The notes beneath the pieces are model-generated. The model saw only the letters and a list, made by a program, of their open reading frames with translations. It was not told the origin of the DNA and did no database searches. Positions 12,446 to 58,830 of a stretch of 64,000 bases of DNA are shown in pieces. The stretch spans positions 72,794 through 136,793 of the forward strand of contig CAVPYW010000008.1 in assembly GCA_963710055.1 (NCBI GenBank). Direction: 5' to 3'. Source of the stretch: an uncultured Chitinophagaceae bacterium. Lineage in GTDB: Bacteria; Bacteroidota; Bacteroidia; Chitinophagales; Chitinophagaceae. How positions within the stretch are numbered: position 1 is the first letter of the stretch; every line of letters begins with the position of its first letter. The translations under genes and the position numbers were made by a program.

Positions 12446-12483
12446 AATATGTTGTTGAAGATATTTTGAAGCTGTGGATCTGA

Positions 12484-12597
12484 CTTATCTGTCCCAACAT
12501 TTATTGTCAGGATGGAATTGGCACCTTTTCCCGCACGTGCGGGACAGGTTGTCAAGGCTTCACCGGGCCATTACCCTCAGCCTTTCTTGATAAGTAG
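12484..12597 (-). ncRNA. SAM-I (S-box) riboswitch
   Basis: Minus strand CTTATCAAGAAAGGCTGAGGGTAATGGCCCGGTGAAGCCTTGACAACC...AAGGTGCCAATTCC...GATAAG matches the SAM-I consensus; upstream of methionine genes. Confidence 0.95.
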
Positions 12598-19275: not shown

Positions 19276-19581
19276 ACCGTACGGGTTTCTTAGTTATGAC
19301 GATTAAAAAGAGCTAGTGTTAGAAGTTTAAGGTTTCACGTTTATGGTTTAAAGTTTCGTGCTATCGCTGAGAGATTCCGGAGTTGCGGAAACTCAACTTG
19401 AAACCATAAACGTGAAACGATAAACGTTTTTATTACCAGGCAAGCGGGGCAGAGAGTGTTTAATAAAATTTATACTAAATGAGAGTACCAATAGAGAACG
19501 GATCAGGTTTTTTCAACCAGGGTATCAGATTTTATTAAGCTCCCTGCCGCTTACCGGCATGGCATTAAATATCTTTAATGA

Positions 19582-26256: not shown

Positions 26257-26387
26257 AGCATAAAGTTACTGCCAGTCTGGGTTTCTGGTTTCAAGTTTCT
26301 GGTTTAAGGTTAGGTCGTTCAAACTTTAAAAGACTCGGCACATAGCACGCCAACCAGAAACCAGAAACTTGAAACCAGAAACGAATC

Positions 26388-29210: not shown

Positions 29211-29807
29211 ATGAAATCCGGGATAGTATATTCCAAAAATCAAATTGAAAAACTTGGGAATACGCTTGTTTACCTGTGTGATCATATAAATCCCATTTCT
29301 AAGACTCATATATTAAAACTGGTATTCATTATAGAAGAAATATCTATAAAAAAGTATGGTATTCCTTTTTTTGATTTAAGATTTAATGTATGGAAGCTTG
29401 GGCCGGTATCACAAGATTTATTTGCAGAGCTTTCGGGCGAACCTGTATTGTTGTCAGAATTTATTTGCAGAGAAAAACCAGAAGAAGAAAATTCCCCGTT
29501 TAAGAAAGTAAAAGAATTTTCTGATGATGAGTTTAGCGATAATGAATTAAAATTACTGGAAACAATAGTTGACCGTTTCAAATATTGCACAGCTAAAGAG
29601 CTGATAAACTATACACACAAAAAAGATTCTCCCTGGTATAATACTGCTTATAAACATGGGATATTAGAGGAGTTGGAAGCTGGCAAAATAAACACTACAG
29701 GTATTGAAATTAAGTTAGAAGAAGCTATAGCCAATGATAAGGCAAAATATGCTCTTTATAAAAACCACAAGGAGTTTTTAAGTCAGTCGAAAAGTCTTAA
29801 AGCTTAA
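29211..29807 (+). CDS. Panacea-domain (DUF4065/SocA-like) antitoxin
   Basis: ISKTHILKLVFII, FNVWKLGPVSQDLF (W..GPV), FSDNELKLLETIVDRF...AKELINYTH...SPW. Confidence 0.85.
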   Translation: MKSGIVYSKNQIEKLGNTLVYLCDHINPISKTHILKLVFIIEEISIKKYGIPFFDLRFNVWKLGPVSQDLFAELSGEPVLLSEFICREKPEEENSPFKKVKEFSDDEFSDNELKLLETIVDRFKYCTAKELINYTHKKDSPWYNTAYKHGILEELEAGKINTTGIEIKLEEAIANDKAKYALYKNHKEFLSQSKSLKA

Positions 29808-29811
29808 ATTA

Positions 29812-30258
29812 TTGTATACTCCAGGCAAACTGATATATTTTGATCCTTTCTATTTTAAAGATGGAGGTGAAAACAAGCCAAAGTATTTTTTGGTTTTGAA
29901 AGTAATTGATGGGAACGCAATTTTAGTCAGCCTTCCATCAAGTATAAACCATTTACCCCAGGATCGTCTAATAGCTCATGGCTGTTTAGAAATTCCTGAT
30001 ATATGTGTTAACTGCTATATTTTTGAAGCAAACAGACCCATCACAAAATCTGGTTGGGCCTTTCCTTTAGATACTCTCTTATATGGCAATTGGCTTGATG
30101 ACTATAGCGTTCAGTCGTTAAATGAAAAATATTCAATTGAAGGCGTAGATTATGAGATAAAAGGAGAACTAACAGATGAAGAATTAAAAAATGTAATTGA
30201 ATGCTTCGCTAACTCAAGTGTAGTAAAAAGGAGGTTTAAAAAGATCTTAGCCTCGTAA
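29812..30258 (+). CDS. Putative toxin partner, PemK/MazF-like N-terminus
   Basis: TTG start 4 nt after the antitoxin stop; PGKLIYFDPFYFKDGGENKPKYFLVL resembles the PemK beta-hairpin; the function is inferred. Confidence 0.5.
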   Translation: MYTPGKLIYFDPFYFKDGGENKPKYFLVLKVIDGNAILVSLPSSINHLPQDRLIAHGCLEIPDICVNCYIFEANRPITKSGWAFPLDTLLYGNWLDDYSVQSLNEKYSIEGVDYEIKGELTDEELKNVIECFANSSVVKRRFKKILAS

Positions 30259-31406: not shown

Positions 31407-31590
31407 TAGTAGGGAGTAGCTAGTAGGGAGTAGCTAGTAGGGAGTAGCTAGTAGGGAGTAGCTAGTAGGGAGAGCTAGTAGGGAGTAGCTAGTAGGGGGT
31501 ATCTGATAATTTAAGACTCTTCCCTACTCGCTACTTCCTACTCCCTACTCGCTACTCCCTACTCGCTACTCACCATTCCCTGCTAACTAC
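31407..31590. repeat. Tandem 14-bp array (TAGTAGGGAGTAGC x6, one copy with a 1-bp deletion) followed by an inverted degenerate array
   Basis: Units at 31407, 31421, 31435, 31449, 31463, 31476; complementary CCCTACT/CGCTACT heptamers at 31521-31590. Confidence 0.9.
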
Positions 31591-37080: not shown

Positions 37081-37156
37081 CTTAACATCGTCTTGAAATA
37101 CGGAATAAAGAATAAAGAATAAGGAACAAGGAACAAGAACAAGAGTACATGTCAAA

Positions 37157-38593
37157 ATGAAAAACATAGTAATGATATCATGTGGGTGGTTGATCCTTTC
37201 ATTGACGGCATGTGCGCAGCAAAACCTGCCTGGGGGACAGGCAGGCAAAATTCAAACATCCGCTGAGCCGGCTATCGCTTTTCCGGGTGCAGAAGGATTT
37301 GGAAAATTTACCACCGGCGGCCGGGGCGGGAAAGTTTTTATCGTTAGCAATTTAAATGATAATGGTCCCGGCAGTTTCCGCGAAGCGTCAGAAGCAAAAG
37401 AAAAAAGGATCATTGTATTTGAAATTTCGGGAACGATCCATCTTGAAAAAAAATTGCTGATAAAAGGCGATGTAACGATCGCCGGTCAATCAGCACCGGG
37501 TGATGGAATTTGTTTGGCGGACCAACCCGTTTCATTGAATGGCGATAATATCATTGTTCGCTATCTGCGTTTCCGCATGGGAGATAAATACCAGAGCCAG
37601 GCAGGTAAAGTAGATGGCAGCGGCGGCGATGATGCATTCGGAGGATTCAAAAGGAAGAATATCATCATCGATCATTGCAGTATGAGCTGGAGCACCGATG
37701 AAGTGTTCTCCATTTATGCCGGCGACAGCACTACCTTACAATGGAATATCATTTCCGAGCCATTGAACTATTCTTATCATTTCGAAACAGGCGATACGGA
37801 TTGGGAATATCATGGTTATGGCGGTATCTGGGGCGGACTGCACTTATCGGCCCATCATAATTTATTTGCACATTGCAGTAACCGCAATCCAAGGTTCAAC
37901 GGCATTCGTCATACTGCAACAGAGTTTGTTGATTACCGTAACAATGTTATTTACAACTGGGGCGGTAATAATATATATGCAGGGGAAGGCGGTAATTATA
38001 ATATCGTCAATAATTATTTTAAGTACGGCCCCAATACCAGCAATAGTGTGAAGTACCGCATTTGCAATCCCGGTAAAAATGAAACGATCGGTTTTGGTAA
38101 ATGGTATGTAGGAGGAAATTATGTTGATGGATCAAAAGAAGTAACAGAAAATAACCGGAAAGGTATTCATATGGGCAATGGCGGTACAGAGGAAGATAAA
38201 AAAACAACGGTGCAGGAAAAAGAATTTGCCACAGAGGGTATCCCGGATCAATCGGCGGCAGATGCATATGAGAATGTATTGAAATATGCAGGCGCCAGCT
38301 TTAGCAGGGATACATTGGATCAGCGTATCATCAATGATGTAAAGAACAGGACAGGCGATTTTATTGATGTGCAGGGTGGTTTTCCGCATGGTACGGCATA
38401 TGCAATGACGGTGAATGCATGGCCCGCTTTATATTCAATACAAATTCCTGTTGATAAAGACAGGGACGGTATGCCGGATGCATGGGAAAGAAAAAATGGA
38501 TTGGATCCTGCGGACGCCTCAGATGCTTCTAAGAATAAATTGCATACACATTATACTAATATTGAAGTGTTCTTTAACAGTTTAGTGAAATGA
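37157..38593 (+). CDS. Pectate lyase, PL1 (Bacteroidota type)
   Basis: AFPGAEGFG..TTGGRGG, TIAGQSAPGDGI, IIDHCSMSWSTDE, RNPRF, C-terminal DKDRDGMPDAWE. Confidence 0.92.
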   Translation: MKNIVMISCGWLILSLTACAQQNLPGGQAGKIQTSAEPAIAFPGAEGFGKFTTGGRGGKVFIVSNLNDNGPGSFREASEAKEKRIIVFEISGTIHLEKKLLIKGDVTIAGQSAPGDGICLADQPVSLNGDNIIVRYLRFRMGDKYQSQAGKVDGSGGDDAFGGFKRKNIIIDHCSMSWSTDEVFSIYAGDSTTLQWNIISEPLNYSYHFETGDTDWEYHGYGGIWGGLHLSAHHNLFAHCSNRNPRFNGIRHTATEFVDYRNNVIYNWGGNNIYAGEGGNYNIVNNYFKYGPNTSNSVKYRICNPGKNETIGFGKWYVGGNYVDGSKEVTENNRKGIHMGNGGTEEDKKTTVQEKEFATEGIPDQSAADAYENVLKYAGASFSRDTLDQRIINDVKNRTGDFIDVQGGFPHGTAYAMTVNAWPALYSIQIPVDKDRDGMPDAWERKNGLDPADASDASKNKLHTHYTNIEVFFNSLVK

Positions 38594-39345
38594 AAAAAAT
38601 ATTTCTCTTCCTGGTAGTTGCATTGGCACTTGCTTTTGCCTTGCCTGAAAAAAAGAAGATAAAGATCTTCATGGCGGGTGATTCCACGATGAGTATAAAG
38701 GAAACAAAGGCTTATCCTGAAACAGGATGGGGAATGCCATTTGTTTATTTCTGGGATTCTACTGTAACTGTTGTAAACCGTGCAAAGAACGGCCGCAGTA
38801 CCAAATCATTCATCAATGAAGGTTTATGGAAAACCATTTATGATGAAGCGGGTCCCGGTGATTATGTTTTTATACAATTTGGTCATAACGATGAAGCCAA
38901 AGAAAAAGGCGAACGATATGCAACACCGGATACTTTCAGAATGAATTTGACAAGATTTGTAAAAGAAACAAGAGCCAAAGGCGCCACACCCATTTTGTTT
39001 ACACCGGTAAGCCGCCGCAAATTCGATACGACAGGAACGGCTTTAGAAACACACCGGGAATATTCGGCTTATGTAAAAGAAGTAGCAGTTAAAGAAAATG
39101 TTTTGTTCATCGATCTCGATACAAAAAGCCGTGAGTTATACCAGCAAATGGGAAAGAACGATTCCAAATTATTATTCCTTCAGTTAAAACCGGGTGAACA
39201 TCCCAATTATCCCGAAGGCAAGGATGATAATACGCATTTCACGGAATTGGGTGCAAGACTGATCGCACAGATCATTTTAAAGGAATTGAGAGAATTAAAA
39301 ATTGAATTGACAGAGCGGGTATTTATTCCGCCGGTAAAAAAATAA
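38590..39345 (+). CDS. Rhamnogalacturonan/pectin acetylesterase (CE12, GDSL)
   Basis: AGDST, GWG, NRAKNGRSTKSF, IQFGHND, DDNTHF. Confidence 0.92.
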   Translation: MKKIFLFLVVALALAFALPEKKKIKIFMAGDSTMSIKETKAYPETGWGMPFVYFWDSTVTVVNRAKNGRSTKSFINEGLWKTIYDEAGPGDYVFIQFGHNDEAKEKGERYATPDTFRMNLTRFVKETRAKGATPILFTPVSRRKFDTTGTALETHREYSAYVKEVAVKENVLFIDLDTKSRELYQQMGKNDSKLLFLQLKPGEHPNYPEGKDDNTHFTELGARLIAQIILKELRELKIELTERVFIPPVKK

Positions 39346-39484
39346 ATCAACTTTATTTAAAAAATGAAACCACACAGGCACATAAGGAACATAAGCAAAT
39401 ACATACATAGTAAATTCTATGTGCATCCTATGTTCTTATAATCCTATCCCGCATCTGTGCGGGACAAGTTGTGGTAAAAAACTG

Positions 39485-41368
39485 ATGAAAAAATTTTACT
39501 GCATATGTACTTTTGTCATCCTCGGATTAGTTTCCAAAGCACAATCCACTGCGGGTATCACGGGAGTAAGAGATACATCGTATAACCTGCAGAATGAATA
39601 TAATAAACAGGTAAAGAATTATTCTTTTATCAGTGTACCATTTCTGTTTTTTACCGGGCACATCTCTGTACAGCAAAACATTCTTTTTTCTGAAACCCGT
39701 GAGCGAAACTTACGCCTCGATATTTATTATCCAAAGGAAGATCACAGTACTAAAAGAACGGCGATCATCTTTTTACATGGCGGTGGATGGAGGAGCGGCA
39801 ATAAAGAAATGCATAGCCCGCTTTTGCAGCGATTGGCCGACAGGGGATTTGTTTGCATTGCCCCCGAATACAGGCTTTCAACAGAAGCATTGTATCCTGC
39901 CGGAGTATATGATGTTAAAACTGCTATTCGCTGGGCGAGAAAAAATGCGTCGAAATATAATATTGATATAAATAAAATAGTGATCGCCGGTCATTCTGCC
40001 GGCGGAGAACTGGCAGCTTTTGCGGGAGCCACCAATAATAATTCATTGTTCGAAGGGAACGGTGAGTATAAAAAATATTCGAGTGTTGTGAATGCAGTGA
40101 TCGATCTGGATGGAACACTGGCCTTCATTCATCCTGAATCGGGCGAAGGAGATGACAGCAAGAAAACATCATCGGCTACCTATTGGTTCGGTTATTCGAA
40201 AACAGAGAATCCCGATCTCTGGAAGCAGGCGGCTCCGCTGACATGGGTGGGAAAACATATGCCGCCCACGCAATTCATCAATAGCGGCGTTGCAAGAATG
40301 CATGCGGGACGGGAAGATTTTATCAAAGTGCTGAAAGAAGATAATATCTATTCGGAAGTAAAAAGTTTTGAAGGATCGCCCCATTCGTTTATTTTTTTTG
40401 ATCCGTGGTTTGATTCCACCGTTCATTATATGGATAAATTTCTAATGAAGATATTTCCCTATGAAAAAAAAGCAGCCAGATCGATCAGGGTGGCGCAGGA
40501 TGGAAGCGGAGATTTTAAAACAGTGCAGGCGGCTATCAATTCTATTCCTAAAAAGAATACAAAACCGGTAACTATTATTGTAAAAGAAGGGGTTTATAAG
40601 GAAAAAATATTCATTGATTCATTACAGCAATTCATCAGCATTGCCGGTGAGGATCCATTCAATACTGTGTTTACATGGAACGATCATACAGGAAAAATTT
40701 CTGCTGCCGGGGACACGATCAATACAAGAACATCCTGGAGTTTTAAAGTAAAGGCCGATAATTTTTCAGCAATGAATATCACTTTTAAAAATGATGCAGG
40801 ATTCTCAGCCGGCCAGGCCGTAGCCGTTGAATCGGATGGCGATAAAGCTGTGTTTGATAATTGCCGTTTCATTGGCAACCAGGATGTATTATTTCTTAAT
40901 AATGAAAAGAGCAGGCAATACTTTGAGGATTGTTATATAGAAGGAACAACGGATTTTATCTTTGGATCGGCTACCGCCTGGTTCCAGAAATGCGATATAT
41001 ACAGCAAAAAGAATTCTCATGTTACGGCGGCTTCCACAGCAAAAGAGAATGAATTTGGTTTTGTTTTCAATTGGTGCGGGCTGGATGGCGACACTTCATT
41101 GCATAATGTTTCATTGGGAAGACCATGGAGGCCTTATGCTGCTGTAACGTACCTGCATTGTTATATCGGTGCTCATATAAAACCGGAAGGATGGAGCACC
41201 TGGAACAATAATGAAAATCATTTAACCGCCCGTTATGCAGAATACGGGAACTTTGGTCCTTCGGCACCGGCTGGTAAAAGAGTAAAATGGGCAAAAGAGT
41301 TAACACCGGATGAAGTAAAAAAATATACATTGGTAATTGTGCTGAGAGGATGGGATCCCGGGAAATAG
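39485..41368 (+). CDS. Fusion: alpha/beta-hydrolase esterase + CE8 pectin methylesterase
   Basis: N-terminal HGGGWRSG / GHSAGG; C-terminal VAQDGSGDFKTVQAAI, GQAVA, QDVL, GTTDFIFG, LGRPW; likely start ATG 39485. Confidence 0.9.
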   Translation: MKKFYCICTFVILGLVSKAQSTAGITGVRDTSYNLQNEYNKQVKNYSFISVPFLFFTGHISVQQNILFSETRERNLRLDIYYPKEDHSTKRTAIIFLHGGGWRSGNKEMHSPLLQRLADRGFVCIAPEYRLSTEALYPAGVYDVKTAIRWARKNASKYNIDINKIVIAGHSAGGELAAFAGATNNNSLFEGNGEYKKYSSVVNAVIDLDGTLAFIHPESGEGDDSKKTSSATYWFGYSKTENPDLWKQAAPLTWVGKHMPPTQFINSGVARMHAGREDFIKVLKEDNIYSEVKSFEGSPHSFIFFDPWFDSTVHYMDKFLMKIFPYEKKAARSIRVAQDGSGDFKTVQAAINSIPKKNTKPVTIIVKEGVYKEKIFIDSLQQFISIAGEDPFNTVFTWNDHTGKISAAGDTINTRTSWSFKVKADNFSAMNITFKNDAGFSAGQAVAVESDGDKAVFDNCRFIGNQDVLFLNNEKSRQYFEDCYIEGTTDFIFGSATAWFQKCDIYSKKNSHVTAASTAKENEFGFVFNWCGLDGDTSLHNVSLGRPWRPYAAVTYLHCYIGAHIKPEGWSTWNNNENHLTARYAEYGNFGPSAPAGKRVKWAKELTPDEVKKYTLVIVLRGWDPGK

Positions 41369-41476
41369 AGTTTAAGGTTTAAAGGTTAATAGTTCAAAGT
41401 TAAGTTTCCGCAAGCCGGAGCTTTATACAAGCACGAAACCTTAAACCCTTAAACGATTAAAATTTTAAACTACGAT

Positions 41477-42538
41477 ATGCAACCGATCAATGCAGGATTA
41501 TGTTCTTTCGGAATGAGTGGCTGGGTATTTCATGCGCCCTTCATCAGTATCAACCCGGGTTTTAAATTGTATGGCGTTTGGGAAAGAACGAAAAACCTGG
41601 CGCAGGAAAAATATCCCGGTATAAAGACGTTCAGGTCGCTGGAAGAGATGTTAGCCGATGATAATATTGAACTGGTGATCGTCAATACTCCCAGCGTTAC
41701 GCATTATGAATATGCAAAGAAAACTATTGAAGCCGGGAAACATTTAGTGGTTGAAAAACCTTTTACGGCCACCCTTGCACAAGCAGAAGAATTGATCGGG
41801 CTTGCCAGCAGGAAAAATGTAAAGATCTCTGTTTATCAAAATCGCCGGTACGACAGCGATTATAAAACAATAAAGAAAGTATTAGAGGAAGGACTGATCG
41901 GTAAAATAATTGAAGCGGAGATCCGGTATGACCGCTTCACTCCTGAATTAAGTTATAAAGTACATAAAGAAACTCCGACAGCGGCTGTTGGTTCTTTGTA
42001 TGACCTGGGTTCGCATTTGATCGACCAGGCATTGCAATTATTCGGAATGCCCAATGCTGTTTCAGCAGATATTGCCATGATGCGGCCGGGCTCGCAGGTG
42101 GATGATTATTTTGACCTGAAACTTTTTTATCCCTGGCATAGAGTAACACTTAAATCCAGTTATTATGTAAGGGAACCATTGCCGGGTTATGTTTTTCATG
42201 GTACCAAAGGTTCGTTCATCAAAACAAAGACCGATGTGCAGGAAACAAAATTATTAGCGGGGATTTCGCCGGCCAGTGATGATTGGGGCATTGAGCCGGA
42301 ATCACAACAAGGCTGGTTGCATACGCAGGTTGGTACGCAGGTAATAAAAAGACATATTGAATCAGAGAGAGGAAATTATGGAGATTATTATAATGGTATC
42401 TATGAAGCGATCAGGAATGATAAAGAAGTTCCGGTAACTGCTAAAGAAGGAATGAACGTAATTAAAATCATCGAAGCGGCTTATCAAAGTCATAAAGAGA
42501 GAAGATTGATCGATCTGCGAGGAATGGAACAAGGTTGA
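41477..42538 (+). CDS. Gfo/Idh/MocA oxidoreductase (YdgJ/IolW-like)
   Basis: FGMSG..FHAP, VVEKPF, YQNRRYD, DLGSHLIDQAL.LFG. Confidence 0.9.
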   Translation: MQPINAGLCSFGMSGWVFHAPFISINPGFKLYGVWERTKNLAQEKYPGIKTFRSLEEMLADDNIELVIVNTPSVTHYEYAKKTIEAGKHLVVEKPFTATLAQAEELIGLASRKNVKISVYQNRRYDSDYKTIKKVLEEGLIGKIIEAEIRYDRFTPELSYKVHKETPTAAVGSLYDLGSHLIDQALQLFGMPNAVSADIAMMRPGSQVDDYFDLKLFYPWHRVTLKSSYYVREPLPGYVFHGTKGSFIKTKTDVQETKLLAGISPASDDWGIEPESQQGWLHTQVGTQVIKRHIESERGNYGDYYNGIYEAIRNDKEVPVTAKEGMNVIKIIEAAYQSHKERRLIDLRGMEQG

Positions 42539-42590
42539 CACGGATCTACACAGATTTATTTTGATCTCAAAACAGGCAGTATAAACGAAA

Positions 42591-44207
42591 ATGAGGGTTA
42601 CGCTAATTATATTGTTAGGGATAATATCTACAGCGGTGTCAGCGCAAACCATTTCAAAAGTTTGGGTGGCGGATAATGGCGATGGCACTTTTAAGAATCC
42701 CGTTATTCATGCTGATTACAGCGATCCGGATGCGATAAGAGTAGGCAATGATTATTATATGATCTCTTCCAGTTTCAATCATGTGCCGGGATTGCCGATA
42801 CTTCATTCAAAAGATCTTGTGAATTGGGAATTGACCGGGCATGCTTTAAAAAGATTGGTGCCGGAAAAACATTTCGATACGGTCCGGCATGGCGGCGGTG
42901 TATGGGCGCCGAGTATCCGTTATCATAACAATGAATTCTATATCTATTATCCCGATCCCGATTTTGGTATTTATTTAATTAAAGCAAAAAATATTAACGG
43001 GCCATGGACCGAACCGGTGATGGTAGAAGCAGGAAAGGGATTGATCGATCCCTGCCCGCTTTGGGATGATAATGGAAAAGTTTATCTCGTGCATGCGTAT
43101 GCCGGCAGTCGTGCCGGGATTAAATCGGTCATTGTTATTAAAGAATTAAACAAGCAAGGAACAAAAGTCATCAGCGAACCTGTTCTTGTTTATGATGGAC
43201 ATAAGGATGATCCAACGATCGAAGGGCCGAAATTTTATAAACGTAATGGATACTATTACATTTTTGCGCCGGCCGGTGGTGTAAGTACAGGATGGCAAAC
43301 CGTTTTGAGAAGTAAAAATGTATATGGACCTTATGAAAGAAAAGTGGTATTGGAAAAAGGGAATACAAAAATAAACGGTCCGCACCAGGGCGCATGGGTA
43401 AACACAATAACGGGTGAAGATTGGTTCCTTCATTTCCAGGATAAGGAGGAGTTTGGAAGGGTCGTTCATTTGCAACCAATGAAATGGGTAAATGACTGGC
43501 CGGTGATCGGGGAAGATAAGGACGGAGATGGCAAAGGATGGCCGGTATATGTTCATCAAAAACCCAATGTGGGAAAAAACTATCCCCGCCTTTCACCTGC
43601 TGACTCGGATGAGTTTGATAAAAGAACCATCGGTTCGCAATGGCAATGGCAGGCGAACCCAAAAGAAGGTTGGGCTTATTGCACTTCGTGGGGAATGTTA
43701 AGAATGTTTGCTGTGTATAATACTGAAAATAATTTATGGAATGCACCCAATATCCTTGCGCAAAAATTACCTGCGGAAGAATTCTATGCAACGGTAAAAC
43801 TCAGCTTTCATCCTAAGTTATACGATGAAAAATTCGGGTTGATCCTTTTTGGCAGCAGCTATGTATATATTTCTGTTAACAAAAGGCAGGACGGCAATTA
43901 TATTTCTGCTGCCAGTTGTTTACGGGCTGACCTGGATTCTGCAGAACAAAAAGCCGAGATCAAAGAGAGAAAAATAGAAGGGGAAACGATCTATCTAAGC
44001 ATGAGAATAGATGAAAATCAATTGGCGCAATTCTATTACAGTACAGATGGATCTAACTATTATGAATTCTGGGGAAGATTCGGTCTCACTCCCGGTAAAT
44101 GGGTAGGTGCAAAATTGGGATTTTTTTATACAAGAAACGACATTACCAATGATGGAGGCTATGTTGATATAGATTGGTTCCGTATCGAGGAAATGGTACG
44201 CAGATGA
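42591..44207 (+). CDS. Glycoside hydrolase family 43 with C-terminal beta-sandwich
   Basis: NPVIHADYSDPD, GVWAPSIRYH, IDPCPLWD, IEGPKFYKRNG, PHQG, GRVVHLQP. Confidence 0.93.
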   Translation: MRVTLIILLGIISTAVSAQTISKVWVADNGDGTFKNPVIHADYSDPDAIRVGNDYYMISSSFNHVPGLPILHSKDLVNWELTGHALKRLVPEKHFDTVRHGGGVWAPSIRYHNNEFYIYYPDPDFGIYLIKAKNINGPWTEPVMVEAGKGLIDPCPLWDDNGKVYLVHAYAGSRAGIKSVIVIKELNKQGTKVISEPVLVYDGHKDDPTIEGPKFYKRNGYYYIFAPAGGVSTGWQTVLRSKNVYGPYERKVVLEKGNTKINGPHQGAWVNTITGEDWFLHFQDKEEFGRVVHLQPMKWVNDWPVIGEDKDGDGKGWPVYVHQKPNVGKNYPRLSPADSDEFDKRTIGSQWQWQANPKEGWAYCTSWGMLRMFAVYNTENNLWNAPNILAQKLPAEEFYATVKLSFHPKLYDEKFGLILFGSSYVYISVNKRQDGNYISAASCLRADLDSAEQKAEIKERKIEGETIYLSMRIDENQLAQFYYSTDGSNYYEFWGRFGLTPGKWVGAKLGFFYTRNDITNDGGYVDIDWFRIEEMVRR

Positions 44208-44277
44208 CGCGGATGCGGCGGATTTACACGGATACTATCAGCGATGATCAGCTAAATCCGCGTCATCAGCGTTCTAT
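44193..44277. repeat. 9-bp periodic palindromic element (ATGGAACGC...GCGTTCCAT family) supplying the GH43 stop codon
   Basis: ATGGTACGCAGATGACGCGGATGCGGCGGATTTACACGGAT...ATCCGCGTCATCAGCGTTCTAT. Confidence 0.75.
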
Positions 44278-44423
44278 CCTGGCGAATAGCGGACAGAACG
44301 ATGAAGTGTGATTATTAATTTCTCTTCCACCGGAAGAAAAATTAATAACAAATCGGAGATTGCAAGGGACGATCATAGTAGCACAGGCGATGACATCATA
44401 ATTTTATTAATAAAATATAAATC

Positions 44424-45836
44424 ATGGAACGCCGCAAATTTTTAGGATATACTGCCGCTACCGGGGCCGCATTGATGCTGAATCCTTTTGAATCCTTTGC
44501 TTATACTGATGTAAAGATCCGGTTAGCATTGGTTGGAACAGGGCATCGTGGTTCCGGATTTTGGGGAAGCGCATTAAAAGATAGTTTCAAAGATGTGGTG
44601 GAATTCGTCGGGCTTTGTGATATTAATCCCGGTCGCATGGCTTATGTAAAACAAGTTATGAAAGTGGATTGCCCCGGCTTTACTAATTATGAAGAAATGC
44701 TGCGGACAACGAAGCCTGATTATGTTATTGTCACGACCGTTGATGCAACACATGATGAATTTATTGTGAAAGCGCTGGAAATGGGTTTCAATGTCATTAC
44801 CGAAAAACCAATGACGACGGATGAAGTAAAATGCAAAAGAATACTTGAAGCGGAAAAGAAAAGCGGCAAGAAAGTAGTGGTAGCATTCAATTACCGTCAC
44901 AGCGTACATGCGATGCAATTGAAAGAACTATTGGTAAAACAACGAATAGGTAAAGTAACATCGGTCGATTTCAACTGGTACCTGAATGTATTTCATGGCG
45001 CCGATTATTTTCGCCGCTGGCATGGAAGAATGAACCGCAGCGGTTCGTTGTGGGTACACAAGGCCACGCATCATTTCGACTTGCTGAACTGGTGGCTCAA
45101 TTCAGAACCTGTTGAAGTAACGGCTTACGGAAGTCTCGATCATTATGGAAAGAATAATTCGTTCCGCGGAATAAAATGCCGTGGCTGTGAATACAAAGAC
45201 AAATGCAAATTCCATTGGGATATCACTAAAGATGAGCGGTTGAATAATTTGTATGCAAAAAATGAGCAGCACGATGGTTATATACGGGATGGTTGTGTAT
45301 GGAGCAATGAAATTGATATTTATGATAAGATGTCGGCGCAGATAATTTATGCCAATGGAGTTACTGCTAATTATTCATTAACGACCTATTCCCCTTATGA
45401 AGGATGGCAGATCGCATTTAATGGAATGAATGGCCGTATCGAAACATGGGAAGATATTCCTTACCTGCAAAAAACAGCGGATGACCAGGCCAATCGTCAT
45501 GCCATGGAAATGAGCAATGCCGATGATGCTATTGCCGGTGAATTCAGGGAAATAATGGTGATGGATAATTTCGCAAAGAACCTTCCTTCCGGACAGGCAG
45601 GCTACGAGATATTTACTACGCCAAAGATCAAAGGAGGACATGGCGGTGGTGATATACGAATGCAAAGAAGAATATTCGTTGACAAAAATGATAACCCTCA
45701 TAATGTAATGGCCGGAACAAGAGAAGGTGCCATGTCGGTACTGATCGGCATTGCGGCAAGAAAAAGTATTCAATTAAAAAGACCGGTAAAAATTTCCGAA
45801 CTGACCGATCTTATTCCAATGGCAAACCGTTTCTAA
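44424..45836 (+). CDS. Tat-exported Gfo/Idh/MocA oxidoreductase (YteT-like)
   Basis: MERRKFL twin-arginine signal, VGTGHRG, ITEKPM, FNYRH, HKATHHFDL, GHGGGD. Confidence 0.88.
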   Translation: MERRKFLGYTAATGAALMLNPFESFAYTDVKIRLALVGTGHRGSGFWGSALKDSFKDVVEFVGLCDINPGRMAYVKQVMKVDCPGFTNYEEMLRTTKPDYVIVTTVDATHDEFIVKALEMGFNVITEKPMTTDEVKCKRILEAEKKSGKKVVVAFNYRHSVHAMQLKELLVKQRIGKVTSVDFNWYLNVFHGADYFRRWHGRMNRSGSLWVHKATHHFDLLNWWLNSEPVEVTAYGSLDHYGKNNSFRGIKCRGCEYKDKCKFHWDITKDERLNNLYAKNEQHDGYIRDGCVWSNEIDIYDKMSAQIIYANGVTANYSLTTYSPYEGWQIAFNGMNGRIETWEDIPYLQKTADDQANRHAMEMSNADDAIAGEFREIMVMDNFAKNLPSGQAGYEIFTTPKIKGGHGGGDIRMQRRIFVDKNDNPHNVMAGTREGAMSVLIGIAARKSIQLKRPVKISELTDLIPMANRF

Positions 45837-45845
45837 AATAATTGT

Positions 45846-46277
45846 ATGAAAAAAATATTTTCAATTGTTATCCTTGTTTTTTTAATGAGCATCATTACAA
45901 ATGCACAAAGCAAACATGAGAAAGCAGTGACCAGTGCAGTCGAACAACTTAGAAAAGCAATGATCGATGCGGATAAAGCGGCATTGGAAAATTTAGTGAC
46001 TGATAATTTAAGTTATGGTCATTCCGGCGGTCATATTGATGATAAAAAAGAATTTGTTGAAAAGATCGTGAGCGGGAGATCAGATTTTGTAACGATCGGT
46101 CTTTCCGATCAAACGATCAGCATTACCGGAAAGACTGCAATTGTTCGTCATAAATTAAATGCAACCACCAACGATAGTGGTAAGCCCGGTGAAGTTCATT
46201 TACTGGTAATGCTGGTCTGGCAAAAGCAACATGGTCAATGGAAATTGCTGGCCCGGCAAGCGGTGAAGCAGTCGTGA
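45846..46277 (+). CDS. Secreted NTF2-like (DUF4440) protein
   Basis: Signal peptide, LSYGHSGGHIDDK, VWQKQHGQWKLLARQAV. Confidence 0.85.
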   Translation: MKKIFSIVILVFLMSIITNAQSKHEKAVTSAVEQLRKAMIDADKAALENLVTDNLSYGHSGGHIDDKKEFVEKIVSGRSDFVTIGLSDQTISITGKTAIVRHKLNATTNDSGKPGEVHLLVMLVWQKQHGQWKLLARQAVKQS

Positions 46278-46397
46278 GTCAATAGTCTTTAGTCATTAGT
46301 GAGAACCAAATACTATATAACTTTCTTTTATATATGCGTTTTTTTGCTTCCAAAACGACCCGGCTAACGACTAAAGACTATTGACTCAGGACTGGCT

Positions 46398-46415
46398 TTC
46401 GTTCCCGGTAACGAT
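46398..46415. promoter_or_regulatory. Second candidate LacI-family operator, upstream of GH28
   Basis: TTCGTTCCCGGTAACGAT followed by TGCGTAAAAAA as at 31618; TAGACTTG at 46464, same 66-bp spacing. Confidence 0.75.
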
Positions 46416-46509
46416 TGCGTAAAAAAACCAATGCAATTCGTTGATTAACAGTTAATATCTGGTTAGACTTGTAGAACTAAACTCCTCATCAGGGGACTAA
46501 AACTTGCCG

Positions 46510-48148
46510 ATGAAAAGAATCTTTTTGCTGATCGCTTTGGCGTTGCCTGTTTTGCTGTTTTCGCAAACAGGGAAATTGCCTGTTATTATCGTCCCGAAAT
46601 TTAAAAAAGATACGATCAATATTGCAAAGAATGGTGCAGTGCCGGATGGAAATACATTGAATACGGTACGTATCAATTCAGCGATCGATATACTTTCAAA
46701 AAGAGGAGGTGGTGTAGTACTGGTACCAGCCGGCTTATGGCTAACGGGTCCCGTTGTTTTAAAAAGTAATATCAACTTACATCTTGCAACCGGCGCCACT
46801 TTATTATTTACAAAAGATTTTGATCTCTATCCTTTGGTAAAAACCAATTGGGAAGGTTTGCCGCAAATGAGAAATCAATCGCCGGTCTCTGCAACAGATG
46901 CTGTCAACATTGCTATTACCGGTAAAGGGATCATCGACGGCAACGGCGATGCATGGAGAATGGTGAAGAAAGACAAACTGAATGAAACGCAATGGAAAAA
47001 AGTAGTTTCAGGCGGCGGTGTGCTTAGCGATGATAAAAAAACATGGTATCCTTCGGAGATAGCGATGAAAGGTTCAAAGATGACGAATCCCGGCGCTATT
47101 TCACCGGAGAAAGATGATGCATTCTATGCAAGTGTAAAAGATTTTCTTCAGGCCCAACTTATTAGTACTTACAAACTGTAAAAATATTTTGCTTGAAGGA
47201 GTAACTTTTCAAAATTCACCGGCCTGGTGTTTACATCCATTGATGTGTGAGGATCTTACGGTAAAAAATATCTCGGTAAAAAATCCATGGTATGCGCAGA
47301 ACGGTGATGGTATTGATGTAGAGAGTTGTAAAAATGTTTTGATCGAGAATTCTGTTTTCGATGTAGGCGATGATGCGCTGTGCATGAAAAGCGGCCGCGA
47401 TGCGGAAGGAAGAAAAAGAGGAAAGCCAACAGAAAATGTGATCATCCGTGGTTGCACAGTATATGCTGCGCATGGCGGTTTCGTGATCGGCAGCGAAATG
47501 AGCGGAGGCGCAAGGAATATTTATGTCAGCAATTGCACATTTATTGGAACCGATATTGGTCTTCGTTTTAAAACAACAAGAGGAAGAGGCGGTGTGGTGG
47601 AGAATATTTTCATTAAAGACATTTATATGAAAGATATTCCCGGCGAAGCTATCTTGTTTGATATGTACTATGCTGCCAAAGATCCTATTCCGCTGGCGGG
47701 AGAAAAAAGAGAATTACCCAAAGTAGAATTCAAACCCGTGGATGAAACAACACCTGTCTTTAAAAATTTTCATATCAGCAATGTGTATTGCAATGGAGCA
47801 GACAAAGCCATTTTTGTAAGAGGCCTTCCGGAAATGCATGTAAAGGATATTGTTTTGGAGAATATGGTGCTGCAGGCTGATAAGGGATTTGATATACAGG
47901 AAGCAACCGGTATCACTTTCAAAAACATTAAAGTAATAAGCGATGATACCAAACCTGTGATCGATGTAGTGCAGAGTGATAAACTGGTGTTTGATAATAT
48001 AACTTATAAAGACGGAACAGAGTTATTGTTCCGCATCAGCGGGGAAAGAAGCGGTAATATCAATATAGGCAAAACCGATGCATCGAAGGCAAAAGAGAAG
48101 ATCAGTTATGAATTGGGCGCATCGGAAAAATCAGTGACTATCAAATGA
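46510..48148 (+). pseudogene. GH28 polygalacturonase, split by a +1 frameshift near 47146-47150 (mutation or assembly error)
   Basis: Removing one base restores DFLRPNLLVLTNCKNILLEGVTFQNSPAW; NGDGID, GDDA, HGG, RFK catalytic motifs intact. Confidence 0.88.
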
Positions 48149-50063
48149 AAAAATTACTTTTCATAGCCTTGCTCTTTCTTGCCACCCAGGCGACTTCACA
48201 ACGTATAGGACGTGGTATTCCCTATGGTACGGATATGGCTCAAACCGTAATGAATACGTGGAAGGATTCATTTTCCCTCGATGGCAAACCCGCCAAATGG
48301 ACCTATGATATGGGAGTTATATTAAAAGGCTTTGAAGGGTTATGGATGAATACCGGCGATGTGAAATATTACAACTACATCCAGCAGCAAATGGATTTTT
48401 TTGTAAAGGATGATGGAACGATCAGGACCTACAAGCCTGATGAGTACAATATCGATCATATCAATAATGGTAAACTGTTATTGTTATTATATCGTGTTAC
48501 GCTCAAAGAAAAATATTTGAAGGCTGCGAAATTGTTGCGGCAGCAATTGCAAACTCATCCAAGAACGAATGAAGGCGGTTTCTGGCATAAGAAAATATAT
48601 CCTTATCAAATGTGGCTGGATGGTTTATATATGGGCGCCCCATTTTATGCGGAGTATGCAATGCTTGCCCATGAGGATACGGCTTTCAATGATGTAGCCA
48701 GCCAATTCACCTGGATGGAAAAACATGCAAGGGATCCAAAGACTGGCTTATTGTATCATGCATGGGATGAAAGCAAACAAATGAAATGGGCCGATCCAAA
48801 AACAGGCTTGTCACCATTATTTTGGGCAAGGGCCATGGGTTGGTATGGAACTGCATTGGTTGATGCACTGGAATATTTTCCGGAGGATCATCCAAAAAGA
48901 AAAGACCTGATTGCAATTCTAAATCGTTTGGTGAATGCAATTGAAAAACAACAGGACAAGACAACCGGTTTGTGGAAAGACATATTGAACTATAATGGTC
49001 CCGGTAAAGAAAAAAATTATTTTGAAGCATCGGCTTCCTGTCAATTTGTGTACACAGTGGCCAAAGGCGTAAGAAAAGGTTATTTACCTGCTGCTAAAAT
49101 GATCATCGCCACCAAAGGATATAAAGGTATCAGGAACAATTCATTAAAACGGAAAATGGTCAAACCAATTTGCACGGCACAGTAAAAGTTTCCGGGCTGG
49201 GCGGTAATCCGTTTCGTGACGGAAGTTTTGAATATTATATGAGTGAGCCGGTTATCGTCAATGATCCAAAAGGTGTTGGCGCATTCCTGTTAGCCAGCAA
49301 TGAAATGGACATGGAAAGAATACGATCTATCGGTAAAGGAAAGACGATAGTAATGGATAACTATTTTAATCGTGAAACAAAAGAAGATGCATTCGGTAAA
49401 AAAATTGTTTTTCATTACAAATGGTGGGAAAAGGATAATGGTGGATTTTCTTTCATGGGACATATATTCAATAAATTCGGTGCAGGTACAAAAGTCCTGG
49501 ATGAAGCACCCGCTGCTGCCAATCTTAAAAATGTTTCTGTTTATTTTTTGATCGATCCCGACTGGCCAAAGGAAAATAAAACACCCAATTATATTGAGCA
49601 AAAGCATATCGATGCCATCTATAATTATGTAAAGAACGGCGGCATCTTAGTAATGATGGCTAATGACAGCAACAATGTAGAATTTAAAAATTACAACAAG
49701 CTGGCAGAAAAATTCGGGATACACTGGAATGAAAATATGCGCCATGATGTAATTGATAATAAGTTTGAACAAGGCGCCCTCTTTTTTGATGAAGCCGATG
49801 CCATATTCGGAAAAGTAAAAAAGGTTTTCATCAAACAGTTGTGTACACAAACCATCAACAAGCCGGCTGTCAGTTTATATAGCGAGAACGGGGAAGTGAT
49901 CATATCAATGGCAACCGTTGGAAAAGGAAAAGTGTTGGCGGTCGGAGATCCCTGGTTCTATAATGAATATGTAGACGGGAGAAAAATTCCTGCAGAGTAT
50001 GAAAATTATCAGGCGGCCGAAAACATGGTTGGATGGTTATTGAAACAGGCCATTATCAAATGA
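48145..50063 (+). pseudogene. GH105 unsaturated uronyl hydrolase fused to a GATase-like/DUF4350 domain, split by a -1 frameshift near 49135
   Basis: WTYDMG, GGFWHK, QMWLDGLYM, FWARAMGW, EASAS; adding one A restores KQFIKTENGQTNLHGTV...NDPKGVGAF. Confidence 0.85.
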
Positions 50064-51071
50064 AAATACCAGCAACGATATTATTCATTTTGATCGTATT
50101 TCAATTGTCTGCGCAAGTAAAGATCGTTGTCGCTATCGACGGTAGTGGTGATTTTAAAACTATACAGGGCGCTATCAACAGCTTGCCTGATTCATCAGCA
50201 ACGGCCAGGACGATCTTTATTAAAAAAGGAACCTACGCTGAAAAATTATATATCGAAAAAGCCAATATCATTTTTGAAGGAGAAGACTCGGGAGAAAACA
50301 ATTATCGTTGCTTCCATTGCAAGAGATGAATGGCGTTGTGGTCATACCGATGATTGGGGTGTAGCTACAATGAATATAGGTGCCAATGATATTACATTGA
50401 AAGATCTTACTGTTTCTAACAATTTTGGTTTTGATCATTCGGAAAGAACGATCTGGTGTGCATCCGATACTTCTGCTAATAAAATGAAGAAGTTAAGAAA
50501 GGACGGTCATCAAATGGCATTGCGGACAATGAATATGGCAACAAGATTAAAAGCGATCAATTGCCGCTTCAAAGCTTTTGGTGGTGATACGGTGAGTCCA
50601 TGGGAGATATATAATGGTATGTGGTATTTCAAAGATTGCATCATGGAAGGAGGTGTTGATTTTTATTGTCCACGTGGTTGGGCATGGGCCGAGAATTGCG
50701 AATTCATTACGCATACCGGCCCCGCTGCTATCTGGCATGATGGTTCGGGTAGCCAGGATTCAAAAACTGTATTGGTGAATTGCAAGTTCACCGGTTATGA
50801 TGGTTTTATGCTGGGTCGTTATCATAGGGAAGCGCAATTCTTTTTGGTGAATTGCCAGTTTGCAAAAAATATGAAAGATGCGCCGATCTATCGTGTGGCG
50901 ACGAGCAATGTTATCAATTGGGGTGAAAGGATATATTATTATAACTGTCATCGTGATGGCGGCAATGATTTTAGCTGGTACGGCGATAATCTTCCCGCGG
51001 GAGTGATGGCGAATGATATAAATGTTAAATGGGTTTTTGGTGATCGGTGGAAACCGGAGATGGAACGCTGA
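50060..51071 (+). pseudogene. CE8 pectinesterase family protein, split by a +1 frameshift near 50288
   Basis: VAIDGSGDFKTIQGAIN; removing one base restores EGEDREKTII; GGDT, GGVDF, LGRYH; ATG overlaps the upstream stop. Confidence 0.85.
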
Positions 51072-51144
51072 TGACGCTGGTGACGCTGATTTGGCGGATT
51101 AATGCTGATAAGATTTATTTAAATCCGTTTCATCTGCGTTCCAT
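51060..51144. repeat. Full-length 85-bp copy of the ATGGAACGC...GCGTTCCAT element, supplying the CE8 stop codon
   Basis: ATGGAACGCTGATGACGCTGGTGACGCTGATT...ATCCGTTTCATCTGCGTTCCAT. Confidence 0.8.
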
Positions 51145-51168
51145 TGCTTGGTAAATAAAAAAAAATTT

Positions 51169-52707
51169 ATGCAATTATCTAAAGATACATTGGCGCAAAT
51201 TGCAGCACAGCCGGGATTGGAAGTGCCGGATGAAAAAATATTTGAACTGCCGGAAAAGGTTTTACAATTTGGAACAGGTGTTTTATTGCGGGCCCTGCCT
51301 GATCATTTTATTGATAAGGCCAATAAGCAGGGTATTTTTAATGGAAGAGTAGTGGTAGTGAAATCGACCGACAGCGATAGTTCAGCATTTGATAAACAGG
51401 ATGGATTGTATACGGTTTGTGTTCGCGGCGTAGAGAATGGAAAAACAGTAGAAGAAAATATTATCAATGCTTCTGTCAGCCGGGTGCTTAGCGCCAAAAC
51501 AGACTGGCAACGAATTTTGGAATGCGCACATAATCCAGAAATGAAGATCATTATTTCCAATACCACCGAAGTCGGTATTCAATTGGCTGATGATAATATC
51601 AATGATGAACCGCCGGTTTCTTTCCCGGGTAAACTGCTTGCTTTTTTATACGAACGATTCAAAGCATTTAACGGGAGCAAGGAAAGTGGCATGGTGATCG
51701 TTCCGACCGAATTGATAACCGATAACGGAACTAAATTGGAAAGCATTGTTTTGGAACTGGCGCACCGGAATGGTCTTGATTTCAAATTCATCGAATGGCT
51801 GGAGAATCATAATACATTTTGCAATTCACTCGTGGATCGTATCGTTCCCGGTAAACCTAATGTAGATGAAACAAAAAAATTAGAAACATCGCTTGGATAT
51901 ACTGACGGCTTGCTTACGATGAGTGAAGTGTTCCGTCTATGGGCGATCGAAGGTGATGAACATGTAAAAAATGTACTTTCATTTTGCAAAGCAGATGAAG
52001 GAATGGTAATAGCGCCGGATATTGACCTGTTCAAGGAATTGAAATTGCGTTTGCTGAATGGAACGCATACATTCAATTGTGGTGTAGCATTCTTGTCGGG
52101 ATTTAATATTACAAGAGATGCGGTAACAGACCCTGTATTTTCTGTTTTTGCAAAGAACCTGATGCATAATGAAATCGCAAAAGCCATTCCTTATACTATT
52201 GATGAAAAAATAAAAACGGATTTTGCCGATCGTGTATTCGAACGTTTTTGCAATCCTTTTATCGATCACCAATGGCAAAGCATTACCGTGCAATACACTT
52301 CCAAAATGAAAATGCGGAATGTGCCCTTGTTGTTAAGACATTATGAATTGAATGATATTCCGCCGGTGCATATGGCCACCGGTTTCGCAGGTTTTTTGCA
52401 GTATATGAAAGTGACAAGAGTAGCCGGCAACCTGCCTGGACAGGCAGGTAAATATTATGGTGAAAGAAATGGGGAAGAGTACGAGATAAAAGACGATTCC
52501 GCCGCTTATTTTCATGAAGTATGGAAAAATAATGACACAGCCGCCGAAGTAGCGCAGCGGGTAATGCAGAATGAAGAATTGTGGGAAACCGATCTTACCA
52601 AATTGCCCGGCTTCCTGCATACGGTGCAGGAACAATTAGAAGAATTTGCGATCAAAGGAGTTTTGTTGACCATTTCACAGGCAGCAATTAAAAAGGTAAC
52701 TGCATAA
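51169..52707 (+). CDS. uxaB: Tagaturonate reductase (altronate oxidoreductase)
   Basis: VLQFGTGVLLR, ISNTTEVGI, SFPGKL, PTELITDNG, NSLVDRIVPG, KLRLLNGTH, RFCNPFIDH; likely start ATG 51169. Confidence 0.93.
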   Translation: MQLSKDTLAQIAAQPGLEVPDEKIFELPEKVLQFGTGVLLRALPDHFIDKANKQGIFNGRVVVVKSTDSDSSAFDKQDGLYTVCVRGVENGKTVEENIINASVSRVLSAKTDWQRILECAHNPEMKIIISNTTEVGIQLADDNINDEPPVSFPGKLLAFLYERFKAFNGSKESGMVIVPTELITDNGTKLESIVLELAHRNGLDFKFIEWLENHNTFCNSLVDRIVPGKPNVDETKKLETSLGYTDGLLTMSEVFRLWAIEGDEHVKNVLSFCKADEGMVIAPDIDLFKELKLRLLNGTHTFNCGVAFLSGFNITRDAVTDPVFSVFAKNLMHNEIAKAIPYTIDEKIKTDFADRVFERFCNPFIDHQWQSITVQYTSKMKMRNVPLLLRHYELNDIPPVHMATGFAGFLQYMKVTRVAGNLPGQAGKYYGERNGEEYEIKDDSAAYFHEVWKNNDTAAEVAQRVMQNEELWETDLTKLPGFLHTVQEQLEEFAIKGVLLTISQAAIKKVTA

Positions 52708-58779: not shown

Positions 58780-58830
58780 ATGCTAAATAAGCGAGCACGA
58801 ATTTAAAATCTAACACTTAAAATTTAAAAC

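Follow-up and report, generated by a model that had tools for sequence, protein, structure and literature searches.

The 64,000-nucleotide stretch analysed here, called the window throughout, comes from an uncultured soil Chitinophagaceae bacterium (GCA_963710055.1, contig CAVPYW010000008.1) and carries a pectin-utilisation locus with SusC/SusD, esterase, GH43, GH28 and GH88 genes together with UxaB/UxaA/UxaC/KduI/KdgK/Eda. Three genes of this locus, coding for a pectate lyase lipoprotein (PL1), a GFO/IDH/MocA-family oxidoreductase and the tagaturonate reductase UxaB, each contain a short palindromic sequence that is read as protein (Table 1). A first-pass annotation, made from the DNA letters alone, had pointed to these sequences and proposed that a mobile hairpin of very small size is colonising loops of proteins. 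We find a dispersed family with filled and empty alleles, copies nested within copies and copies in phages, all of which bear this proposal out, and we consider it quite probable that a non-autonomous mini-element of 20-21 bp, moved in trans and sorted by selection, left its copies at the three sites long ago and that these have since mutated.

Results

The three sequences lie on the forward strand exactly where they had been placed, and the names given to their host genes agree with those of homologues and with Pfam (the pectate lyase itself has no Pfam match); the nearest homologues of the hosts are from Chitinophagaceae. The common codon phase was likewise confirmed, all three copies being read in forward-strand open reading frames (ORFs) as AA/C CTG CCT ..., which gives the peptides of Table 1. 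The exact 10-mer GACAGGCAGG occurs three times in the window, at these copies only, and the pattern CCTGCC-N(1-12)-GGCAGG occurs twice against 0.02 expected from shuffled sequences. As DNA hairpins, copies 1 and 3 fold at -8.9 and -6.5 kcal/mol respectively, and the stable fold of copy 2 has been lost. Copies 2 and 3 are found free of gaps in contigs of an independent soil-metagenome run (X1), and the position of copy 1 coincides with a contig break in that run. The peptide of copy 1 stands directly past the lipobox cysteine of the pectate lyase. The start of UxaB is likely the ATG at 51169.

Table 1. Positions in the window of the element copies, their host genes and other features mentioned in the text
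Feature	Position	Strand	Remarks
Copy 1	37225..37245	+	21 bp, CCTGCCTGGGGGACAGGCAGG; peptide (N)LPGGQAG
Copy 2	45581..45601	+	21 bp, CCTTCCTTCCGGACAGGCAGG; peptide (N)LPSGQAG
Copy 3	52431..52448	+	18 bp, CCTGCCTGGACAGGCAGG; peptide (N)LPGQAG
Host gene 1, pectate lyase lipoprotein (PL1)	37157..38593	+	Name from homologues; insert at residues 24-30, N-terminal linker
Host gene 2, GFO/IDH/MocA-family oxidoreductase	44424..45836	+	Name from Pfam; insert at residues 387-393
Host gene 3, tagaturonate reductase UxaB	51148..52707	+	Insert at residues 422-427 of the 512-aa form
Intergenic tandem heptamer arrays	19323-19427, 26280-26382, 31407-31581, 37102-37143, 58800-58829
GH28, two ORFs	46504-47181, 47189-48148
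GH88, two ORFs	48145-49185, 49170-50063
Pectinesterase ORF	50127-51071		Seems short at the start
ORF with IS3-type integrase core domains	17741-18466	+	rve, rve_3
S-adenosylmethionine (SAM) riboswitch	12482-12596	-	76 bits
Cys/Met-metabolism pyridoxal-phosphate (PLP) enzyme	11058-12248
Homoserine dehydrogenase	9823-11079
SocA/Panacea antitoxin-domain ORF and following ORF	29211-30258	+	Second ORF 148 aa
Pvc16 N-terminal-domain ORF and following ORF	61072-62900	+	Near window end; second ORF 409 aa

The consensus of the family is CCTGCCT-R-CCGG(A)-CAGGCAGG, a stem of 8 bp (or 7 bp) with a loop centred on CCGG(A). It exists as a 21-mer, here called E21, and as a 20-bp perfect palindrome, CCTGCCT[G/A]CCGG[C/T]AGGCAGG, here called E20, which came to light through the inspection of half-sites; the pattern CCTGCCTRCCGG(A)YAGGCAGG takes in both. 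Metagenomes were scanned with AACCTKCCT-N(0-4)-GGACAGGCAGG, which fits all three window copies and permits five gap lengths and 64 loop triplets, and at least 120 loci were found. Among the 123 matches listed, 116 are one 23-mer, AACCTGCCT[A/G/T]CCGGACAGGCAGG, with the loop triplet ACC in 67, GCC in 46 and TCC in 3, and 80 listed metagenome rows derive, to judge by contig names, from about 70 different assemblies. Element-bearing loci range from 31 to 72% G+C, and the element is letter-for-letter alike across them. Viral contigs, scanned with no flank requirement, hold 29 E21 and 56 E20 sites, against no site at all for either of two composition-matched controls, in which the loop or the arms had been permuted. 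The carriers include Chitinophagaceae and Flavobacteriaceae, and there are hints of hosts outside Bacteroidota in a Nitrospirales bin with variants, in an Acido-Lenti-1 RNA within one E20-rich phage contig (L303, 10903-10948) and in G+C content. In a Chitinophagaceae relative (GCA_031410875.1), an exact E20 lies between genes (L002 start / L003 1409-1428); the same genome has a decayed 21-mer, CCAGCCTGCCGGAAAGGCAGG, at codon 29 of a pectinesterase (L002, 1272-1292), in the N-terminal part, where it reads N-QPAGKAG-K. No Rfam family overlaps the element, searching proteins with the encoded peptides in tandem gave no scoring hit among 712 candidates, and neither the exact element sequence nor the peptide was found in the literature searched. 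A scan of a genome collection with the 'GG'-loop form of the window was discarded, its matches (at least 120) being mostly unrelated hairpins and terminators in all phyla.

Set against the consensus CCTGCCTGCCGGACAGGCAGG, copy 1 is the GCC form with the loop CC changed to GG, copy 2 is the TCC variant with one extra G-to-T change, and copy 3 would most simply be the GCC-form consensus minus three loop bases; in a Flavobacteriaceae genome (L050), too, the 18-mer of copy 3 stands in place of the 21-mer within one repeat context. The 'GG'-loop forms of the window are thus decayed derivatives of CCTGCCT-R-CCGGA-CAGGCAGG, and the element looks inactive in the window now, with all three copies diverged and one unable to fold.

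That the peptides are true insertions, as had been proposed, was confirmed against orthologues at both the protein and the DNA level. The UxaB peptide LPGQAG is absent in 119 of the 119 closest orthologues, including one of 88% identity (L001), and the uxaB DNA of the window, GGCAA[CCTGCCTGGACAGGCAGG]TAAATA, stands against GGTAA/TAAGTA in this relative (GGTAATAAGTA), a difference of exactly 18 bp. The oxidoreductase has a clean gap of 21 bp in the same relative, and its peptide is missing from every aligned homologue, from an 80%-identical fragment down to 35% identity. In PL1, 7 of 120 orthologues carry an element-derived peptide at the exact same site, CAQQN^K, in the forms NLPAGQAG, NLPTGQPG, NLSTGQVG, SLTAGQAG and similar. 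On a neighbour-joining tree the seven filled genes are dispersed and stand beside empty sisters: L270, filled (CAACAAAA[CCTGCCTGCCGGACAGGCAGG]TAAAGT), is paired with the empty L272 (CAACAAAATAAAGT), and L273, filled (CCTGACTGCCGGACAGGCAGG), with the empty L274; a further orthologue, L276, has the copy CCTGTCTACCGGACAGGTAGG. On this evidence the PL1 site has been filled or emptied several times. The orthologous peptides are written in the element's own codons, not in divergent ones, and the sister genes are empty, a result that favours the first-pass annotation.

At the uxaB, oxidoreductase and PL1 sites the filled minus the empty sequence is exactly the element, with no target duplication, and the empty orthologous sites contain no proto-palindrome. 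Direct repeats of 12 bases around some copies were considered as target-site duplications and rejected, being pre-existing heptamer arrays, and the clean filled and empty pairs have no duplication. Three self-nested copies in one phage contig sit at three different internal positions, CCTGCCTA[E]CCGG..., ...CCGGA[E]CAGG... and CCTGCC[E]TACC..., and from these it follows that the unit is exactly 21 bp and enters without duplication.

The observation that all copies are preceded by AA holds for the window, but not for AA as a part of the element: where the flank was not forced, in viral copies, the preceding dinucleotide was GA in 6, CC in 5, CG in 5 and AA in only 2. AA is therefore a property of A-rich local targets. 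All 29 viral copies are followed by C or T, and among the metagenome copies listed the next base is C in 50%, T in 34%, G in 12% and A in 3%; since every GGN codon specifies Gly, coding does not explain this pyrimidine. Besides this pyrimidine at +1, the avoidance of T at position -1 is the only preference seen, and the flank profiles contain no conserved tetra- or pentanucleotide. Direct-repeat flanks (at least 9 of 10 bases) surround 13.5% of copies vs 0.6% of controls, and inverted-repeat flanks (at least 7 of 8) surround 13.5% vs 1.8%. The direct repeats consist of heptamers arrayed in tandem, for example CYACAAA, with which the element, being three times 7 bp, stays in register, and in the inverted flanks the element is the tip of a longer hairpin, including repeats that resemble miniature inverted-repeat transposable elements (MITEs) and are centred on E20 or another palindrome. 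The targets of insertion comprise ORFs, intergenic hairpin tips, heptamer arrays, a tRNA variable arm, phage genes and the element's own copies.

MITE-like hairpin repeats of this type occur at 8850-10750 of L303, with arms GGGTGCCCCATCCTTG...CAAGGGTGGGTC and with TCCGCCGCGGCGGA or E20 at the centre. This contig has four element copies, two of them preceded by GTAG. An inverted pair of copies there was considered as a REPtron-like arrangement and rejected: the ORF between the copies is not a transposase and the pair belongs to the MITE-like repeats. The window has five intergenic heptamer arrays of its own (Table 1), three of which form inverted pairs round a short centre; in one of them, (TAGTAGG GAGTAGC)x7 is opposed by its reverse complement. 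Run X1 shows a 6-bp difference in the array just 5' of the pectate lyase. In other genomes the mini-palindrome is frequently found within arrays of this type.

We then considered how the element is read. Frame calls from G+C-rich viral contigs, where spurious long ORFs abound, were set aside in favour of low-G+C loci and one annotated phage contig, and an E21 copy was counted as intragenic where a low-G+C locus had at least 50 open codons on each side. About half of the low-G+C E21 copies lie inside ORFs. All three forward frames of the element are open and one predominates, since 44 of the 52 intragenic copies (about 85%) are in the frame L-P-(T/A)-G-Q-A-G; relative to the gene, 49 are forward and 3 reverse. 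The other frames encode Cys and Arg, and one reverse frame of the A-variant has a stop codon. E20, which would shift the frame if coding, was non-coding in 12 of 13 low-G+C viral contigs.

The peptides had been said to lie in protein loops, and this agrees with what we see: they occupy the tips of beta-hairpins in UxaB and the oxidoreductase and a lipoprotein linker in PL1. In the AlphaFold model of UxaB (pLDDT, predicted local distance difference test, 74) the peptide is in coil between strands 417-419 and 428-433, in that of the oxidoreductase (pLDDT 89) it is in coil between strands 369-381 and 394-402, and both models show a local dip in confidence at the peptide. UxaB orthologues P0028, P0069, P0057, P0073, P0101 and P0047 have other short inserts in or beside the same beta-hairpin loop (equivalent to window 52420-52470), among them NPQDAVH, at the identical site, ARPDEPVGR, KIPAN, PDPSIP and PD; the insert of P0028 is 18 bp long and not palindromic.

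The phage contig with nested copies (IMGVR_UViG_3300038551_000082; L250, L258) is P22-like, with portal, terminase, D5 primase and PD-(D/E)XK nuclease genes, and has six exact E21 copies. Five of these, each reading LPTGQAG, are inside three translated ORFs, which include the primase and a glucosaminidase-domain protein. A second mini-palindrome of this contig, CCTGCCTGTCGGCAGACAGG, is present in four copies, two of them in ORFs where they read LPVGRQG; it resembles the main element in reverse complement, apart from one change and one deletion, and may be a sister family. In another contig (L307, 2239-2330), E20 forms the long variable arm of a phage tRNA-Met that is still called by ARAGORN. 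The same tRNA flanks surround E20 in L279 (~8616), with no tRNA call by ARAGORN, and in L318 (~515) E20 is in the D-loop of a tRNA fragment.

Some other features of the window were noted. Between 46487 and 51165, the genes for GH28 and GH88 are both broken into two ORFs, and that for the pectinesterase seems short at its start; their counterparts in L001 are single genes of 545, 652 and 334 aa, respectively. Run X1 differs from the window by single-base indels at 46487, 47147, 49136, 50287 and 51165, and the removal or addition of one base restores the joined frame of GH28 (at 47147) and GH88 (at 49136). The split genes are likely due to indel errors in the window assembly, or else are very recent pseudogenes. 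The IS3-type integrase ORF has no clear terminal inverted repeats around it. A SAM riboswitch lies upstream of the PLP enzyme and homoserine dehydrogenase genes. The SocA/Panacea antitoxin-domain ORF is directly followed by an ORF without family match, with which it may form a toxin-antitoxin pair, and the Pvc16-domain ORF, also followed by an ORF without family match, hints at a phage-tail-like (contractile injection) gene cluster.

Discussion

The element goes in whole and without duplication, before a pyrimidine (C or T follows 84-100% of copies in the various sets) and in structure-prone or A-rich DNA. From this behaviour we infer a dedicated insertion mechanism, in which an enzyme acting in trans would recognise the hairpin and move the element. 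Because there is no duplication and because hairpin tips and repeat arrays are favoured, a single-strand hairpin route of the HUH/Y1 kind, as in IS200/IS605 or the REP-associated tyrosine transposases (RAYTs; REP, repetitive extragenic palindromic sequence), could be followed; an RNA intermediate, of the kind reportedly proposed for the small dispersed repeats of Nostoc, would be about as good a fit. Selection would afterwards sort the copies. In genes only lengths divisible by three would persist (21 bp, or 18 bp where the loop has a deletion), and almost only as Leu-Pro-(Thr/Ala)-Gly-Gln-Ala-Gly, a flexible peptide that is presumably tolerated at beta-hairpin tips and linkers, and the 20-bp perfect palindrome would remain in non-coding DNA. 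A shared frame and a location in loops are what purifying selection leaves, and the frame is best explained by selection rather than by the insertion step.

Other origins of the same pattern were weighed. The mini-element could be copied through RNA, by reverse transcription of a transcript hairpin and insertion of the product, rather than as single-stranded DNA. The heptamer arrays, mini-transposon hairpins and self-nesting match what is reported for the Nostoc repeats, the orientation bias relative to genes (49 to 3) is strong, and the decayed copy of L276 has turned two C-G pairs into pairs of the G-U type in RNA. However, selection also explains the bias, given the reverse stop codon of the A-variant and the Cys or Arg of the other reverse frames; E20, a perfect palindrome, reads alike in both orientations; near the copies no reverse transcriptase turned up; and the wobble-compatible changes are a single anecdotal case. 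We regard copying through RNA as unlikely, yet as the most serious of the alternatives. A larger transposon with ends CCTGCCTRCC... and ...GGACAGGCAGG, inserting without duplication, might instead leave its joined tips behind on excision as a constant scar of 20-21 bp. Such an origin would account for the constancy of the sequence, for the missing target duplication and for the likeness of the palindrome to two abutted inverted ends; nested copies could be re-insertions into a scar followed by a second excision, and the 20- and 21-bp forms two outcomes of repair. Yet almost all left halves in 1.02 Mb of carrier DNA have their right half a few bases on, in full or variant copies, the exceptional lone halves are short fragments with no matching right end nearby, and no pair is split by a long insert. 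No transposase recurs near the copies, and scars of bacterial DNA transposons are not normally so uniform. An excision scar is therefore improbable.

Lower still we place the idea that nothing has moved, and that local template switching or gene conversion made the palindromes or that the peptide NLPxGQAG was kept as useful. Template switching can perfect palindromes, and a PL1 site filled in several lineages may be read as retention, but the same 20-21 bases recur between unrelated flanks in non-coding DNA, a tRNA gene and genes of phages and bacteria, the empty orthologous sites lack a proto-palindrome, and the codons are the element's own with no synonymous alternatives. This explanation is largely refuted and we hold it to be very improbable. 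As to a technical origin in sequencing or assembly, for instance from an adapter or linker, an identical short palindrome in many unrelated data sets, and a window with single-base indel differences from short-read contigs, could raise the suspicion. Its chance is nevertheless negligible: lengths are divisible by three in a consistent frame, decayed and orthologous copies exist in diverged genes such as MurB (72% identity) and PL1, copies 2 and 3 recur in an independent short-read assembly, and to our knowledge the sequence matches no common library adapter.

For the preferred interpretation, a non-autonomous mini-element moved in trans, several observations are unfavourable. The RAYT/Y1 transposase gene that had been envisaged near the motif was not found in the window ORFs or in 1.45 Mb of related loci: the scanned window ORFs have no Pfam match to a Y1, HUH or reverse-transcriptase domain, only the IS3-type integrase ORF, and a crude HUH-plus-Tyr motif screen of the related loci gave no candidate. 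No gene family recurs beside the element, whose neighbours are ordinary housekeeping genes. The PL1 data fit recurrent insertion and one old insertion with several precise losses alike, and no single population showed a site in both its filled and its empty state, run X1 agreeing with the window. Further, 7.3 Gb of plasmid records contain no copy and the host range is patchy, hosts other than Bacteroidota are assigned from bin labels and G+C content, and the enrichment is a result for the family, the DNA of the source genome covered being 64 kb. More tentative, and in our view somewhat doubtful, is the stronger proposition that the palindrome is an actively moving element of several bacterial phyla and phages, with one enzyme family that inserts the exact hairpin scar-free.

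We take these repeats to form a family that is new relative to described systems: palindromic, mobile, very small, borne by phages and spread across lineages. The element is among the smallest mobile DNA seen, and, if this is true, 20-21 bases act as mobile DNA across unrelated bacteria and phages. Were it actively moving with an enzyme family of its own, no smaller mobile DNA would be known outside Nostocaceae, and it would steadily supply protein loop segments and extra tRNA arms. How a tiny hairpin is precisely recognised, copied and inserted without duplication is a puzzle that has been open for the Nostoc repeats since 2008, and the present family offers much more material for phylogenetic profiling, with many genomes, phages and clear filled and empty alleles. 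For protein evolution, it would mean that loop residues are gained in one step, with selection on frame sorting the 20-bp from the 21-bp form. For annotation, it explains recurrent inserts of the 'LPTGQAG' type and odd long-armed tRNAs, and an enzyme that places a defined hairpin scar-free could interest technology.

Several known systems share some of these properties. MITEs are likewise non-autonomous, with inverted-repeat ends and an enzyme supplied in trans, but they are 50-300 bp long and make target-site duplications, whereas the present element makes none and is smaller than one pair of MITE terminal repeats. Elements of the IS200/IS605 type are marked by a lack of target duplication and by insertion beside a short target of fixed sequence; for the element described here no duplication was seen, and the +1 pyrimidine and the avoidance of T at -1 are its only preferences, with no tetra- or pentanucleotide target. 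The mobile G+C clusters and palindromic mini-elements of fungal mitochondria are 30-50 bp long, belong to organelle genomes and, in some classes, make short target duplications. Like the present family they are very short G+C-rich hairpins that enter A+T-rich DNA, including coding DNA and sometimes in frame, but their sequences are unrelated to it. Among Rickettsia palindromic elements (RPEs), those of the RPE-1 type are about 100-150 bp long. Their segments are far longer than the 6-7 residues seen here, and RPEs are confined to Rickettsia and have no sequence similarity to our element. They resemble it, as the first-pass annotation had pointed out, in that a palindromic repeat lies in frame in functional genes and adds a tolerated peptide (PMC3733652); intragenic dimers of the REP type add 20-30 residues (PMC3733652).

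REP sequences and REPINs, moved by RAYTs (TnpA-REP tyrosine transposases), are the most plausible mechanistic analogue, with their single-strand hairpin recognition. They too are short G+C-rich palindromes (20-40 bp) in many copies and without target duplication, and some REPs lie inside genes (PMC3733652). The present family differs in having no conserved end tag GTAG or CGTC, in the rarity of inverted doublets and in its location, all window copies being intragenic and E20 mostly extragenic; nor was a RAYT gene found in the sequences scanned. REPs are, moreover, usually species-specific, whereas this element is conserved across very different genomes.

The small dispersed repeats (SDR1-8) of Nostoc punctiforme and its relatives (Elhai et al. 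2008, Genome Res 18:1484) are reportedly 21-27 nt long, found in heptamer arrays and mini-transposons and self-nested, and are said to be 'perhaps the smallest known mobile elements'; an RNA intermediate was reportedly proposed for them, and no enzyme is known to move them. The present family belongs to Bacteroidota, contigs of 31-72% G+C and phages. Frequent in-frame residence in enzymes and the split between a 20-bp non-coding and a 21-bp coding form are features of the present family that are not known from the Nostoc repeats. The study of Elhai et al. (2008) is cited by PMC3116915, PMC4390886 and PMC5861425, and the last of these reports such repeats from Nostocaceae only and none outside. 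The two families share their size class (20-21 bp here), their dispersal, their presence or absence between orthologous regions, their residence in heptamer arrays and mini-transposon hairpins and their insertion into their own copies. In behaviour, the Nostoc repeats are the closest match to the element.

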